A stretch of DNA of 43,828 nt from a virus: IMG/VR virus record IMGVR_UViG_3300031718_000141, positions 1-43,828 of that record; one strand, 5' to 3'. The notes under the pieces are model-generated. The model searched no databases. It had not been told where the DNA came from and was given only the letters and a program-made list of their open reading frames with translations. Positions 1 to 43,828 of the stretch are shown piece after piece (within the stretch, counting starts at the first letter, position 1; each line of letters opens with the position of its first letter). The position numbers and the translations under genes were made by a program.

Positions 1-127
1 TTGCGCTGGGTCTCAAACCTCACCCGTAGTTCCAGCACATCTTGGAAGGCCGGACTCCATCCCCAATCGCCCTTCTTTGGCGGGTCCTTGGCCCATCCGG
101 TCGCAGCCGTCATGCATCCAGCCAACT
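1..127. repeat. Terminal direct repeat, copy A (identical to 43702..43828). Implies a circularly closed assembly with unit length 43701 bp.
   Basis: Read by eye: bases 1-127 (ttgcgctgggtctcaaacc...catgcatccagccaact) recur exactly at 43702-43828. Confidence 0.95.
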
Positions 128-3109: not shown

Positions 3110-3469
3110 CTATTTCTTTGTCCAGCGCGTTACCCTGCCATGTGCCGCTACGTGGCAACGGCGGCAGATGAACAGCGTCGATTCCGGTGAGTCATCCCCG
3201 CCTTGCGCCCGCGTTGGCGAATGGTGCAGCTCGCCGGTTTCTTCCGTGATGTTCCGCCCGCAGCGATGCCCGTTGAAGCCATGCACCGGAGCCTCGCAGA
3301 ACCCCCTGCTGCGCAGGAACACCGCGTGCCTCAGCGCCGCCATGTCCAAGCCGAAGAGAAACGTCTGTATCTCCCCGTCCTTCGAGCGCTTCTTGTAGGA
3401 GTTCTTGTCCAGAAACCCAGCCGCCAGCGTTGCAGCGTCATCTTTAAACATTGGCCTACGTCGCTTCAT
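3110..3469 (-). CDS. HNH endonuclease, 119 aa
   Basis: GELHHSPTRAQGGDDSPESTLFICRRCHVAAHG matches the HNH core (HH...GG...N-position...CxxCH..H). TAG stop. Confidence 0.75.
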   Translation of the reverse strand: MKRRRPMFKDDAATLAAGFLDKNSYKKRSKDGEIQTFLFGLDMAALRHAVFLRSRGFCEAPVHGFNGHRCGRNITEETGELHHSPTRAQGGDDSPESTLFICRRCHVAAHGRVTRWTKK

Positions 3470-3834
3470 GCGATAAACTCCGCAAGAAAGGCTTTTGCCC
3501 GCCCGTCCTTGACCTGCTCATTGGTAAACTGCAAGACCCGGTAGCCGTCCATTACAGCCCAATTCAGCTTGTTGTATTCGTCTTCCTGTGGAGAGTCCAC
3601 CTTGCCTGCTTTCGTGCGCCTGCGGGCTTCCTGTGCGCTCCAGTAGCCTCTCCTGTGACCACCTGAGAACTGTCCACCGCTTATTTCGATAGCCAGCCTT
3701 AGTTCTGGTACGTACACATCCAAGCGCCACTGCCTGCCATCGGCGAACTGAAACTCGGTCAGGATTTCCTCCTCGACGCCCAGTTCCGGCAGGATGTGGT
3801 CCACAAGCAACAACTGTGCCTCGCTTAGCTTCAC
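3466..3834 (-). CDS. Vsr/DUF559-like (PD-(D/E)xK fold) endonuclease-like protein, 122 aa
   Basis: WRLDVYVPELRLAIEISGG...H...EYNKLNWAVMDGYRVLQFTNEQV resembles the DUF559/Vsr pattern. GTG start in a GTGA overlap. Confidence 0.5.
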   Translation of the reverse strand: MKLSEAQLLLVDHILPELGVEEEILTEFQFADGRQWRLDVYVPELRLAIEISGGQFSGGHRRGYWSAQEARRRTKAGKVDSPQEDEYNKLNWAVMDGYRVLQFTNEQVKDGRAKAFLAEFIA

Positions 3835-4521: not shown

Positions 4522-4872
4522 TCATGCCGGGTCACCTGCGAGGCGCACCCTAGCAATTCTACCGTCTTCGGCAAGATGGCACGGCCTACAGAGCCAGAGA
4601 ACTTCCAAGGGCTTTGAGTAGTCGGGGTGATGTCCCTGTGGCTTACATTCTCGACCGCATCTTTCGCAGTGCGAGGGACGCACCAACTTCCCGCTATAAA
4701 GTGCCCAATGGAATTTGTTCCATGCGGCCATCTTCTCTGGATTTTTTTGCTTGCGACGGTGATATTTGCGTAGGTGGTACCCACTGTTTGAACGAGACTT
4801 CCGGGCAACCGCGTTGTAACCTTCTGCGTTGTCCTGACGCCATCGTTCTTGTGGTGTGCGAGTGTCAGACAT
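4522..4872 (-). CDS. HNH homing-type endonuclease, 116 aa
   Basis: HCERCGRECKPQGHHPDYSKPLEVLWLCRPCHLAEDG is a typical phage HNH signature. TGA stop. Confidence 0.8.
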   Translation of the reverse strand: MSDTRTPQERWRQDNAEGYNAVARKSRSNSGYHLRKYHRRKQKNPEKMAAWNKFHWALYSGKLVRPSHCERCGRECKPQGHHPDYSKPLEVLWLCRPCHLAEDGRIARVRLAGDPA

Positions 4873-5058: not shown

Positions 5059-5087
5059 AATTTATCCTGCATCTCTTTTCCTGTCAA
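5059..5087 (-). promoter_or_regulatory. sigma70-like promoter TTGACA - 17 nt - TAAATT, upstream of a structured ~180-nt leader
   Basis: Minus strand: TTGACA 5087-5082, TAAATT 5064-5059. It sits in an otherwise non-coding gap. Confidence 0.45.
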
Positions 5088-5210
5088 GCCAAAGTTTTGA
5101 ACGTTTCAGAGAGCAGGCGCGGCACTCGCGCGTCCCATTTTTTCTTAGGTAGAGATTCTTGCCAGACAGCCGATGGCCTCTGGAGCACTTCTCACTTTTG
5201 AGAGCGCCCA

Positions 5211-5828
5211 TTAGACCAGCTTTCCGTCTGTCAGTTCAGCGAGAAACTCGCGTTGCAACGCGCCCATTTTGTCTTCTTGCTCGACAACCTTGCCAATCAT
5301 GGCGACTAGCCAAATGCGGTCGCCTTTCCACTTGTCAAGTCTGTAAGTGGCATGTAACGTTCCGGCACTACAGAGATTCAATGGGCCGGGAACGGTCTGG
5401 ACAAGACCAACATGGGCAGCGGTACCAGTTCCGCCATTCGCCGGTTTCCCGTCTTTGTCGGATTTCCAGTAGGCCAGCTTTGCGCCTTCGCGGAGCAGCT
5501 TTTTGGCTCTAGCTTTGCGTTCTTTCGGCAGCATGGCTAGGAAACAAACAGTAGCTTCCTTTAAGCCGTCGCCGTCGCCGTAGCCGTAGCCGGAGCCGTA
5601 GCCGTAGCCGGAGCCGGAGCCGTAGCCGTCGCCGTAGCCGTAGCCGTCGCCGTAGCCGTAGCCGTCGCCGTAGCCGTAGCCGGAGCCGGAGCCGTAGCCG
5701 GAGCCGTAGCCGTAGCCGTAGCCGGAGCCGGAGCCGTAGCCGTAGCCGTAGCCGGAGCCGTAGCCGTAGCCGTAGCCGGAGCCGGAGCCGTCGCCGTATG
5801 TCAGAGTGCCCAAGGGGACTTCTCCCAC
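5211..5828 (-). CDS. Gly-Tyr repeat protein, about 205 aa: N-terminal (X-Gly)39 array plus a C-terminal globular domain containing LCSAGTLHAT
   Basis: ORF track. Only non-ATG starts are available (GTG 5828, or TTG 5813 with a GGGAG SD). TAA stop. The repeat is in frame with a normal-looking C-terminal domain. Confidence 0.6.
   Translation of the reverse strand: MGEVPLGTLTYGDGSGSGYGYGYGSGYGYGYGSGSGYGYGYGSGYGSGSGYGYGDGYGYGDGYGYGDGYGSGSGYGYGSGYGYGDGDGLKEATVCFLAMLPKERKARAKKLLREGAKLAYWKSDKDGKPANGGTGTAAHVGLVQTVPGPLNLCSAGTLHATYRLDKWKGDRIWLVAMIGKVVEQEDKMGALQREFLAELTDGKLV
5565..5798 (-). repeat. Tandem 6-nt periodic repeat (GGC TAC / GGC TCC / GGC GAC units) encoding (X-Gly)39
   Basis: Plus strand reads gccgtagccgtagccggagcc... 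for about 234 nt. Confidence 0.95.
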
Positions 5829-6085
5829 TTCTCAGTAGCTTCTGCGGTGACTTCGGAAACAGAAGTTACATCCGTAAGGGTGAGCTTTGGAACCTTCGGG
5901 CCAATCTTGCATGAACTGGATGGGCCGTTCGCGGCAAGGCCAAGAAAGCCTTTCACGTCGGCAGACCAATACACACAATTGCGAGCATTGCTGATGGTGA
6001 TGGACTTGTCCTTTACGCCTACAGATGCGTAGCCGAAGAACACGCCTCGATGAACTGTTGTAACGAGCACTGCTTGTTCCTTCAT
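5801..6085 (-). CDS. conserved-looking phage hypothetical protein, 94 aa (MKEQAVLVTTVHRGVFFGYA...)
   Basis: ORF 5801..6184 trimmed to ATG 6085, which is preceded by AGGAGG. TGA stop. Confidence 0.7.
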   Translation of the reverse strand: MKEQAVLVTTVHRGVFFGYASVGVKDKSITISNARNCVYWSADVKGFLGLAANGPSSSCKIGPKVPKLTLTDVTSVSEVTAEATEKWEKSPWAL

Positions 6086-6107
6086 TGTGAGGGAACCTCC
6101 TGAGCAA

Positions 6108-6136
6108 ACCTTACGATAAATACGTTTTCGTGTCAA
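6108..6136 (-). promoter_or_regulatory. sigma70-like promoter TTGACA - 17 nt - TAAGGT
   Basis: Minus strand: TTGACA 6136-6131, TAAGGT 6113-6108. Followed by an AGGAGG SD and ATG 6085. Confidence 0.45.
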
Positions 6137-6223
6137 GCGAATAATTCGTTTAGTAGATTCTACAGCATCTCCCCGACTTGACATCTCGCTCGCCCGGCTG
6201 TGAAACTGGCCCCGCTATGCAGC

Positions 6224-40963: not shown

Positions 40964-41380
40964 TTAAGAGACTGATTGCTCAGCCGGGGCATTGGCGCGC
41001 CAAGAGGGAGTCGAACCCTCAACCTGCCCAGTTAGAGTGGGCCGCTCTGCCAGTTGAGCTACAGGCGCGTAAACTCGGTAATGCTTCAGTACTTCTCTCT
41101 GCTCGCCGCGAATCGGAGCCGTCGCAATCGCTGTAAATCCCAAGTCAAAATCAGGCTCCGTCCATTCGTAATGAGGGATGCCGTTGTCCCTCAGTTTCTT
41201 GGCGGTCTTGAGCAGTGAGCGCACGTTGGGCAAGCCAATCAGGACGATGTTCGGGCAGCCCGTCTCATGCCGAATCGAGACAAGCTGGTAGATGGCGTGA
41301 TTGGATTGGACGATTTGTTGCGCGAAAGTAATATCGGTGCGGACGAAAACGTAAACGTAGGAATCAGGAATCTATGACAT
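40964..41380 (-). CDS. PTH2-like (peptidyl-tRNA hydrolase 2 fold) protein. ATG-TCA-TAG opening with an in-frame amber at codon 3; the frame has no stop before the tRNA and only closes at TAA 40966-40964.
   Basis: Hand-translated. Domain codons 41371..41069 read IPDSYVYVFVRTDITFAQQIVQSNHA...PNIVLIGLPNVRSLLKTAKKLRDNGIP...FTAIATAP...VLKHYRVY. The ORF track sees only the TTG-started 3' part (40964..41233). Confidence 0.6.
40993..41068 (-). tRNA. tRNA with anticodon CUA (amber suppressor), 76 nt, CCA encoded
   Basis: Hand fold of GCGCCTG-TA-GCTC-AACTGGCA-GAGC-G-GCCCA-CTCTAAC-TGGGC-AGGTT-GAGGG-TTCGACT-CCCTC-TTGGCGC-G-CCA. All stems are Watson-Crick except U6.U67 and G7.U66. U8, A14, G18G19, A21, U33, A37 and the T-loop are conserved. 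The anticodon is at 41035-41033. Confidence 0.85.
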
Positions 41381-43559: not shown

Positions 43560-43828
43560 CTACTGAACTTTCAGGTTCAACGTCCAATCTATTGCGCTCT
43601 TGGCCTCGGCAATCCATTTTTCCGCGTCTGCTCGCGTAGGACCGCCGTGGGATACGTGCGCGAAGGCCGACTCGACTAGGGCCAATCCGCTTTCCAATGC
43701 CTTGCGCTGGGTCTCAAACCTCACCCGTAGTTCCAGCACATCTTGGAAGGCCGGACTCCATCCCCAATCGCCCTTCTTTGGCGGGTCCTTGGCCCATCCG
43801 GTCGCAGCCGTCATGCATCCAGCCAACT
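43560..43828 (-). CDS. 3' part of the wrap-around hypothetical gene (see 1..164)
   Basis: ORF track 43560..43826. The true ATG lies at position 164 of the circle. TAG stop. Confidence 0.6.
   Translation of the reverse strand, partial: LAGCMTAATGWAKDPPKKGDWGWSPAFQDVLELRVRFETQRKALESGLALVESAFAHVSHGGPTRADAEKWIAEAKSAIDWTLNLKVQ
43702..43828. repeat. Terminal direct repeat, copy B (identical to 1..127).
   Basis: Exact 127-nt match to the start of the window. Confidence 0.95.

Follow-up and report, generated by a model that had tools for sequence, protein, structure and literature searches.

A conserved two-gene module of temperate phages joins a predicted Sm-like protein to a length-variable Tyr/Ser/Asp-Gly array

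Why should a gene in the early region of a tailed phage open with a long and perfectly regular run in which every second residue is glycine and each of the others is tyrosine, serine, or aspartate? We address this question for the IMG/VR virus record IMGVR_UViG_3300031718_000141, analyzed over its entire 43,828 nucleotides (nt), a stretch that we call the window and to which all coordinates refer. The gene in question lies on the minus strand. According to the list of open reading frames (ORFs) and their translations, it occupies positions 5211..5813 if read from its favored TTG start (200 amino acids, aa; TAA stop at 5213..5211) and 5211..5828 in a longer alternative reading from GTG (205 aa). 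Its product consists of a short leader and start region (5799..5828), an (X-Gly)39 array (5565..5798), and a C-terminal globular domain of 117 aa (5214..5564). The gene overlapping it upstream (5801..6085, minus strand, 94 aa) belongs to the Pfam family DUF6948 and is predicted to encode an Sm/LSm-like protein. We conclude that the two genes form a conserved module found in early operons of temperate phages, and we tentatively propose that their products build a multivalent assembly.

The array in the window is strictly regular. Residues 11-88 of the 5211..5828 product read as (X-G)39, with X being Tyr (22), Ser (11), or Asp (6); a preliminary description of this DNA had given the same alternation and the same counts, and retranslation agrees with it exactly. 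Half of the residues are Gly and 28% are Tyr, all 22 Tyr are flanked by Gly, no residue other than G, Y, S, and D occurs, and with 6 Asp and no Lys or Arg the net charge is about -6. At the DNA level, the segment is made of TACGGC (22 copies), TCCGGC (11), and GACGGC (6) and hence of four codons only (GGC, 39; TAC, 22; TCC, 11; GAC, 6). Tandem Repeats Finder reports it at 5564..5798 with period 6, 39.2 copies, and a score of 351; all other tandem repeats in the window have 2.7 copies or fewer. GGC makes up only ~44% of Gly codons in the long ORFs of the window (191/438), and 39 out of 39 would be expected by chance with a probability of ~1e-14. Therefore, the uniformity of the Gly codons is a property of the DNA that goes beyond ordinary codon bias. 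The order of the X residues is close to random: the longest repeated substring is no longer than in shuffled strings (P = 0.41), and a higher-order pattern was rejected on the basis of this test. Local duplications are nevertheless present (an 18-nt unit encoding YYD in 3.6 copies, a 24-nt duplication, and shorter tandem stretches of 6-30 nt), and the 18-nt repeat and the 6-30-nt stretches are the best substrates for slippage within the array. Database matches to the protein proved uninformative. The match of the full protein to Pfam TrAA12 (23.7 bits, compared to a cut-off of 30.9) covers the array only and is a low-complexity artifact, as is a serine-rich NCBIfam match. Searches of PHROGs, PADLOC, and NCBIfam otherwise returned nothing for either the array protein or DUF6948. 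Inspection by eye reveals no hydrophobic segment in the 205-aa product, to which no transmembrane predictor was applied.

A repeat of this kind could be an assembly artifact or a noncoding sequence, and such arrays do often break assemblies: 32 of 89 loci in the set derived from the C-terminal domain, and 26 of 133 in the set derived from DUF6948, stop inside the array. In the window, however, the longest exact internal repeat measures 48 nt and all k-mers of >=51 nt that overlap the array are unique, so that the order of its units can be assembled without ambiguity. The contig also closes on itself with a 127-nt overlap, the same feature is found in isolate genomes and in long-read genomes, and both frame and residue set are conserved. 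We therefore give an artifact practically no credence.

The conservation emerges from the array family collected with the 117-aa domain, which comprised 24 close homologues (all metagenomic), 127 IMG/VR contigs, and 9 contigs from metagenome-assembled genomes (MAGs); clustered at 50% identity, the wider domain family numbers 296 representatives. Arrays in the same frame are present in the 24 close homologues and in >80 viral loci, and nearly all full-length members of the domain family have an N-terminal X-Gly array in that frame. The preliminary description had taken the array to be coding, and the recurrence of the same frame and the same residue set in >120 diverged homologues upholds this. 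Judged by these sequence comparisons, the array is best regarded as a translated low-complexity segment that is neither a chance ORF nor a one-off. Across 55 complete arrays, length ranges from 7 to 74 units (median, 35), and the in-register (period-2) fraction is ~1.0 in nearly all homologous arrays. The X positions are filled by Tyr (39%), Ser (28%), and Asp (25%), which together account for ~92%, and then by Asn (2%), Ala (1.2%), Arg (0.15%), and Gln (0.06%), with Lys at 0; basic and aliphatic residues are thus almost absent. Some lineages make use of Asn, Thr, Ala, Phe, or His, with His frequent in the proteins P0249, P0200, and P0208. In one member, P0133, Ala takes the place of Gly, giving (X-Ala)n (AYANAFAFADAYAN..), and a more degenerate version of this pattern is seen in P0171. 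Compensation of charge between acidic array and basic domain was considered and rejected, as the two are uncorrelated over 124 proteins (rho = -0.08).

A single homologue, P0010, seemed to lack the array, and this turned out to be a gene-calling error. At its locus (L108, 2266..2854), the ORF runs unbroken through the array; the caller had begun P0010 at an internal ATG past the array and invented an (A-M/L)n "AMAMAL" ORF in another frame. Because callers split array genes in this manner, counts of "domain-only" members in databases are inflated.

The gene upstream is conserved as well. Its product matches DUF6948 (PF22253) with 75.7 bits against a cut-off of 27 (E = 3.2e-21). DUF6948 stands immediately upstream of the array gene, on the same strand, in the 54 loci that have upstream DNA, whereas the other neighbors of the array gene (Erf, HNH, and endonuclease genes) are not conserved across loci. 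A reverse search starting from DUF6948 yielded no fewer than 7,982 protein clusters and located the gene on 406 viral and 53 genome contigs. Among 133 independent loci, 125 have a (Y/S/D-Gly)n ORF directly downstream of DUF6948, with a median of 48 nt separating the end of DUF6948 from the array, and seven of the eight loci without an array gene have <600 nt of downstream DNA. Five arbitrarily picked DUF6948 genes on long contigs displayed the same arrangement with a downstream array.

What is attached to the array varies. Of the 125 array proteins, 53 carry a domain like the C-terminal domain of RIIB (RIIB-C), 36 end at the array, 10 have some other C-terminal domain, and 26 run into a contig end. 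Many of the 36 array-terminal proteins have instead a helical N-terminal "GAC" domain of 60-90 aa (motif ..(R/L)xGAC..G(V)..), and some DUF6948-linked proteins are little beyond a leader and an array. As the array is constant after DUF6948 while the globular domains differ, the conserved unit is the predicted Sm-like gene plus the array, and the attached head domains are exchanged. Proteins of the GAC type occur in L103 (2761..3189), L104 (1375..1923), L128, L158, L160, L211-L219, and L227-L237; Pfam has no match to the GAC head domains. A related domain (aC.eav.aF..FP.G..WP..AEAAGL.V.W) follows the array in L151, L153, L171, L173, and L186.

These architectures bear on the possibility that the array is a passive flexible spacer, that is, a nonsticky tether or entropic bristle between an N-terminal motif and the domain, or a solubilizer, whose length drifts. 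Its make-up of 50% Gly plus Ser and Asp is typical of linkers, its length is free (7 to 74 units), and its X order is near random. Furthermore, a leader motif, h-h-x-G-x-(V/L)-P-x-W, precedes the arrays of most relatives (it is degenerate in the window protein, ..GTLT), as it would in a design of anchor, tether, and head. However, Tyr, needless in a pure spacer, is the commonest X residue and is kept in nearly all arrays, more than a quarter of the array proteins (36/125) have no head to tether, and DUF6948 co-occurs with the array rather than with the head domain. We consider a passive spacer unlikely, although it is the alternative to be taken most seriously.

The arrays also bear a record of how they evolve. 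In nearly every one, a single Gly codon and a single third base of the X codon are used, and only positions 1 and 2 of the hexamer vary; lineages have fixed different forms (GGC, GGT, or GGG for Gly; TAC/TCC/GAC or TAT/TCT/GAT for X). As positions 3-6 are uniform within arrays while the adjacent domains are mixed in their Gly codons (GGC, 48%; GGT, 20%; GGA, 18%; GGG, 13%), we infer that the uniformity reflects concerted evolution by slippage or unequal exchange. Ser in arrays is encoded by TCY in 97% of cases and almost never by AGY, and the dinucleotides found at positions 1 and 2 (TA, TC, and GA) are single steps around TAC. Although point mutation could equally well produce His, Pro, Thr, Ala, Val, and Cys, these residues are seldom found at X. 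The X set thus appears to be restricted by selection on the peptide, and it is presumably at the protein level that this set is held.

Length changes are seen between genomes that are otherwise nearly the same. L047 and L049 are 100% identical in domain DNA and differ in arrays of 24 versus 25 units plus one Ser/Tyr change; L060 and L069, likewise 100% identical in domain DNA, have arrays of 70 and 74 units. Within a single long-read Bryobacterales chromosome, two copies are distinguished by 1 mismatch and 1 gap over 5,450 nt, and the difference between their arrays (18 and 23 units) matches the single gap. A Marinacidobacterales MAG holds eight copies with arrays of 9, 15, or 17 units. These whole-unit differences between near-identical genomes and between intragenomic copies bear out the length polymorphism that had been predicted from the window alone, and they are consistent with the slippage that was expected to cause it. 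The observed differences are always whole 6-nt units and the frame is never lost; the array therefore adjusts its length and is not an on/off switch. A phase-variable contingency locus was excluded on this ground, the 6-nt unit being a multiple of three. The variable region of a diversity-generating retroelement was likewise rejected: the window has no second copy of the array, variation falls at position 1 (T/G) and position 2 (A/C) and is not adenine specific, and no reverse transcriptase was found among the window ORFs scanned.

The same two genomes contain the DUF6948-array element in several copies, with nine in the Marinacidobacterales MAG CBDFHB01 (L211-L219) and four in the Bryobacterales chromosome OZ252030.1 (L193 and L196-L198). 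The flanks of these copies are mostly 93-100% identical, which suggests a multicopy prophage or mobile element that is possibly transposable.

A high indel rate, random order, and very variable length are also what would be expected of a neutral, runaway microsatellite that is tolerated at a permissive site and has no function. Against this, the array is kept in essentially every DUF6948-linked gene across many phyla despite the exchange of neighboring domains, its residue set is restricted with Tyr maintained, some of the proteins are hardly more than leader and array, and the sole apparently array-less allele is the miscalled P0010. A functionless repeat is, in our view, extremely unlikely.

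The partner protein has been given the start used by its homologues. The longest DUF6948 ORF in the window spans 5801..6184 (minus strand) and encodes 127 aa from the ATG at 6184; homologues begin at the ATG at 6085 (94 aa, MKEQAVLVTT..), and the extra 33 N-terminal residues are probably untranslated. An AlphaFold2 (AF2) model, built from database proteins, has a predicted local distance difference test score (pLDDT) of 90.2. In a Foldseek search of the PDB, the top 50 hits to this model were almost all Sm/LSm subunits (Lsm1-7, archaeal Sm, and human Sm), with probabilities of 0.99-1.0 and a root mean square deviation (rmsd) of 2.3-2.6 Å over ~80 columns. DUF6948 is thus predicted to adopt the small beta-barrel fold of Sm/LSm proteins. 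What it shares with Sm, LSm, and Hfq is small size (~94 aa) and a predicted fold that superposes on archaeal and eukaryotic Sm/LSm subunits, a likeness known from the model and not from sequence: sequence searches detected neither a solved relative of DUF6948 nor a link to Sm, LSm, or Hfq. A separate idea, that DUF6948 and the C-terminal domain of the array protein are paralogues sharing a YW-S-D..G..NGG-like motif, was rejected (hhalign probability, 1%).

The two genes of the module are closely interlocked. The array gene has no ATG start, the candidates being GTG at 5828..5826 and TTG at 5813..5811. The TTG is preceded by a Shine-Dalgarno-like GGGAG (5822..5826, minus strand) at a spacing of 8 nt, whereas the GTG has no comparable signal. 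Gene callers placed the start at the TTG position in the homologues P0001, P0004, P0006, and P0009 and at the GTG position in P0003 and P0005. We favor TTG 5813 as the start. The DUF6948 gene ends with a TGA at 5803..5801, overlapping the array gene by 13 nt when the latter is read from TTG. The missing ATG, the two candidate starts, the GGGAG, and the overlap with the upstream gene had all been noted in the preliminary description and are borne out by the sequence. The GGGAG is embedded in the Trp-Glu codons (TGGGAG) near the 3' end of the DUF6948 gene, and the corresponding residues, W87 and E88, are invariant in an alignment of 43 sequences and conserved at >=90% in another. An overlap of 13 nt and a ribosome-binding site inside the DUF6948 gene suggest that translation of the array gene is coupled to that of its partner. 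At its other end, the array gene stops with a TAA (5213..5211) that overlaps the ATG of a 49-aa HNH-like ORF, as TAATG.

The overlap and the predicted fold together raise the possibility that the array acts mainly as nucleic acid, with (NNCGGC)n RNA serving as a ligand of the Sm-like protein in translational control, or with the DNA serving as a recombination or replication element, the peptide being secondary. Sm, LSm, and Hfq proteins bind RNA, the predicted fold of DUF6948 is of that type, the genes overlap with the ribosome-binding site inside DUF6948, and individual arrays show striking uniformity at hexamer positions 3-6. However, since lineages differ in their Gly codon and in TAC- or TAT-type X codons, no single RNA or DNA motif is conserved. 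The variable positions are confined to Tyr, Ser, and Asp codons with other reachable codons rare, as expected from selection on the protein, the X-Ala variants alter position 5 of the hexamer, and the frame relative to the flanking domains is constant. We regard a primary role of the nucleic acid as very unlikely.

The C-terminal domain of the window protein, which the preliminary description had called ordinary, is indeed a regular globular domain: its AF2 model is confident (pLDDT, 90.6) and it is shared by the 296 representatives of the family. It is basic (K+R, 20; D+E, 13), and the wide family alignment shows, in a C-x2-G-x-L-H-A-T motif, an invariant His71 and a Cys65 that is conserved at >=90%. 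Compared by Foldseek with BFVD, the model matched DUF7666 proteins and the RIIB proteins of T4-like and N4-like phages with a probability of 1.0 and query-normalized template modeling scores (TMq) of 0.5-0.62. Superposition on DUF7666 proteins gave an rmsd of 2.8-3.4 Å over ~95 columns, and TMq was ~0.6 for RIIB proteins. Other fold matches in BFVD were giant-virus ankyrin, DUF4116, and pentapeptide proteins, and proteins of the DUF7666 fold are likewise fused to repeat modules (ankyrin, DUF4116, and pentapeptide). Comparison of the domain alignment with an alignment of 12 RIIB C-terminal sequences by hhalign gave E = 0.0022 but a probability of only 13% over 90 columns, with Y-x-A-W-K, P-G-x-V, C-x2-G-L-H, and K-x-R..E aligned in order; another alignment of the domain gave nothing against full-length T4 RIIB. 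We predict that the domain has an RIIB-C/DUF7666-like fold. The model had no fold match in the PDB (best E = 0.56), a sequence match in the PDB between the domain profile and Mtd (E = 0.33) was dismissed as chance, and tblastn of the domain against 50,697 records of isolated phages found no match. T4 RIIB differs from the window protein in having an N-terminal helix-turn-helix (weak matches, just under Pfam cut-offs) where the latter has its array, and no rIIA-like match was found among the window ORFs scanned, which were not all of its ORFs.

About 30 family members follow a sister architecture, in which the RIIB-C-like domain is joined to Pfam Pentapeptide repeats (E = 1e-26 to 1e-76) and there is no X-Gly array. 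In these proteins, the domain is N-terminal and the repeats, which have a known beta-helix fold, are C-terminal and followed by a conserved tail (..PGW..L..GYLE..), whereas the window protein has an N-terminal array and no pentapeptide repeats. The members are at the loci L003 and L005, in which no DUF6948 was found upstream, and also include P0042, P0045, P0056, P0061, P0064, P0066, P0070, P0072, P0082, P0101, P0140, P0141, P0157, and P0166.

The replacement of the array by a rod-like module in this sister family would suit an array that is itself an ordered beta structure, either a beta-solenoid or a cross-beta sheet of the silk or amyloid type, in which one face would be Gly and the other Tyr, Ser, and Asp, forming a fiber or a rigid rod. 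Period 2 is perfect over the 39 units of the window array and nearly so throughout the family, and the X-Ala arrays of P0133 and P0171 imply that the constraint may be a small residue at every second position, as in fibroin. Peptides of the GYGYGYG type self-assemble into cross-beta fibrils (PMC8163036). The likeness to silk fibroin lies in the strict alternation of Gly with side-chain residues, including Tyr and Ser; the difference is that X in fibroin is mostly Ala or Ser, whereas in the phage family it is Tyr, Ser, or Asp, with Ala at only 1.2%, and the phage proteins, unlike silk, show no sign of secretion or of a structural role. Collagen-like (Gly-X-Y)n phage proteins differ in that Gly is every third residue rather than every second. 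Period 2 would also follow automatically from a hexanucleotide unit, with no need for selection, while Asp at 25% of X places many like charges on one face of a sheet, and free length and random X order are unusual in a folded solenoid. In addition, the pentapeptide module of the sister family sits at the opposite terminus. An ordered beta structure is, we believe, decidedly unlikely.

Cohesive low-complexity domains rich in Tyr and Gly are already a known kind. Such polymers have so far been known from eukaryotic pores and from ribonucleoprotein (RNP) granules, and eukaryotic LSm proteins act with low-complexity regions in the latter. Small beta-barrels can also be peptide-binding modules. 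In comparison with the FUS family, the window array is alike in that every Tyr stands in G-Y-G, Ser and Gly are abundant, charged residues are few, basic residues are missing, and the logic of stickers and spacers applies; it differs in lacking Gln, in its perfect period 2, in being built from a single hexanucleotide, in being more acidic, and in being borne by a phage. In PEX13, cohesive YG repeats form a hydrogel or selective phase that binds aromatic client motifs, the repeats follow a short, conserved peptide motif, and the system also includes a small beta-barrel in the form of an SH3 domain (PMC12173945). The resemblance to PEX13 is one of composition only, a repetitive, Tyr/Gly-rich, unstructured tract. 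PEX13 is a eukaryotic membrane protein with an amphipathic helix and a transmembrane segment, and its repeats are not a strict dipeptide; the phage arrays, in contrast, have strict period 2 and ~25% Asp, differ in length between near-identical genomes, and are accompanied by a separate, predicted Sm-like protein. The preliminary description had likened the array to FUS; as an analogy, the YG domain of PEX13 or silk-type (GX)n sequences appear to stand nearer to it, and the YG phase of PEX13 would be the nearest precedent for the assembly that we propose.

With rather less than even confidence, we favor the explanation that the array is an acidic, disordered polymer in which Tyr residues would be the "stickers" responsible for cohesion or binding, with Gly and Ser spacing them and Asp keeping the chain in solution, and which together with its Sm-like partner would build a multivalent assembly early in infection. 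The array would provide self-association or partner binding that is multivalent and tunable by length, with slippage or unequal exchange resizing it. Combined with a presumably ring-forming Sm-like partner, it could give rise to a higher-order assembly, such as a gel, a condensate-like phase, or a brush, which might concentrate or position the attached globular head (RIIB-C-like in the window). A likely role would be host takeover or counter-defense early in infection. The suggestion of counter-defense stems from two observations: RIIB counters RexAB, and the array gene sits among Erf and accessory early genes. RIIB is a counter-defense protein against RexAB whose mechanism is unknown, and it is toxic on expression and triggers a bacterial gasdermin system (PMC10312443).

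Several points weigh against the proposed sticker polymer. Many arrays are very acidic, with net charges down to -26, and in the absence of counter-ions or a basic partner this would work against self-cohesion. Strict period 2 is a requirement of beta-strands and silk and is unneeded in a pure sticker-spacer polymer. With X order near random and an Asp count that does not covary with the charge of the domain, no specific intramolecular design is visible. The assignment of DUF6948 to the Sm-like fold is that of a predicted model with modest Foldseek E-values (7e-3 to 5e-2), and the link to RIIB is structural only, since Pfam DUF7666 was unmatched at E <= 0.1-1 and the hhalign probability was 13%.

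A bolder form of the proposal can be put forward as a speculation that is quite unlikely to hold in full. In it, the module would encode a phage "YG phase," with a ring-forming Sm-like protein nucleating or capping hypervariable Tyr/Ser/Asp-Gly polymers to yield a selective intracellular gel or condensate. Bacterial viruses would thereby possess an equivalent of the YG phase of PEX13 and the FG phase of nucleoporins; it could shelter recombination or replication intermediates or trap host defense proteins, and the turnover of arrays would be the footprint of an arms race. If a sticker polymer is indeed at work, this phage family would be the first to rely on a cohesive Tyr/Gly repeat polymer, and the polymer would come with a dedicated Sm-like partner and a length tunable by slippage. 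What is new here is that the repeat is phage-borne, strictly dipeptidic and probably slippage driven, acidic, and combined with a dedicated, predicted Sm-like partner and interchangeable heads.

The genomic setting is that of a temperate phage module. The window comprises a complete tailed-phage genome (43,701 bp) followed by the 127-nt overlap, its bases 1..127 being identical to 43702..43828, and looks like a circularly closed assembly (k = 127 overlap). Its terminase shares only 25-26% identity with terminases of isolated phages. Erf and the array gene belong to one leftward operon of small genes and are co-directional. Hyphomicrobium sp. MC1, a cultured strain whose genome is finished (FQ859181.1), has a prophage at about 1.154 Mb in which the same pair is preceded upstream by Cro/CI and Erf and followed downstream by an integrase. 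The array protein had been described beforehand as early, and the early-type operon, evident from the co-direction with Erf and from the Cro/CI-linked Hyphomicrobium prophage, agrees with this. According to MAGs and isolates, hosts of the module include Acidobacteriota, Alphaproteobacteria, Myxococcota, Planctomycetota, Cyanobacteria, Bacteroidota, Saccharibacteria, and others, and the MAG contig closest to the window is from Terriglobales. A literature search returned no paper on DUF6948 or DUF7666, nor any on GY/YG repeats (e.g., GYGYGYG) in phages or bacteria; phages and prophages of soil bacteria with this module number in the hundreds to thousands, yet no description of it turned up in the library searched. 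The module is open to direct testing, as it is present in cultured strains such as Hyphomicrobium sp. MC1, Sphingomonas elodea ATCC 31461, Sphingobium boeckii DSM 25079, and Gemmobacter caeni DSM 21823.

The arrays have practical consequences for metagenomics as well, being a frequent cause of broken phage contigs and wrong gene calls. In four pairs of loci (L016/L110, L081/L168, L085/L123, and L086/L185), each from an IMG/VR contig of 45-74 kb, DUF6948 and the remainder of the array gene lie at opposite ends of the contig. These four contigs are circular genomes that the assembler opened within the array. Circular genomes cut in this way can thus pass for linear ones.

Two further features of the window deserve mention. 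Four small HNH/endonuclease-like ORFs (3110..3469, 3466..3834, 4522..4872, and 5062..5211, all on the minus strand), some of which look like fragments, form a cluster shortly after the array gene within its operon. The sole tRNA gene of the window (40993..41068, minus strand; tRNA-Pyl according to ARAGORN; Rfam tRNA, 60.8 bits) has the anticodon CUA, that of an amber suppressor, and 6 of the 30 long plus-strand ORFs end with a TAG stop.

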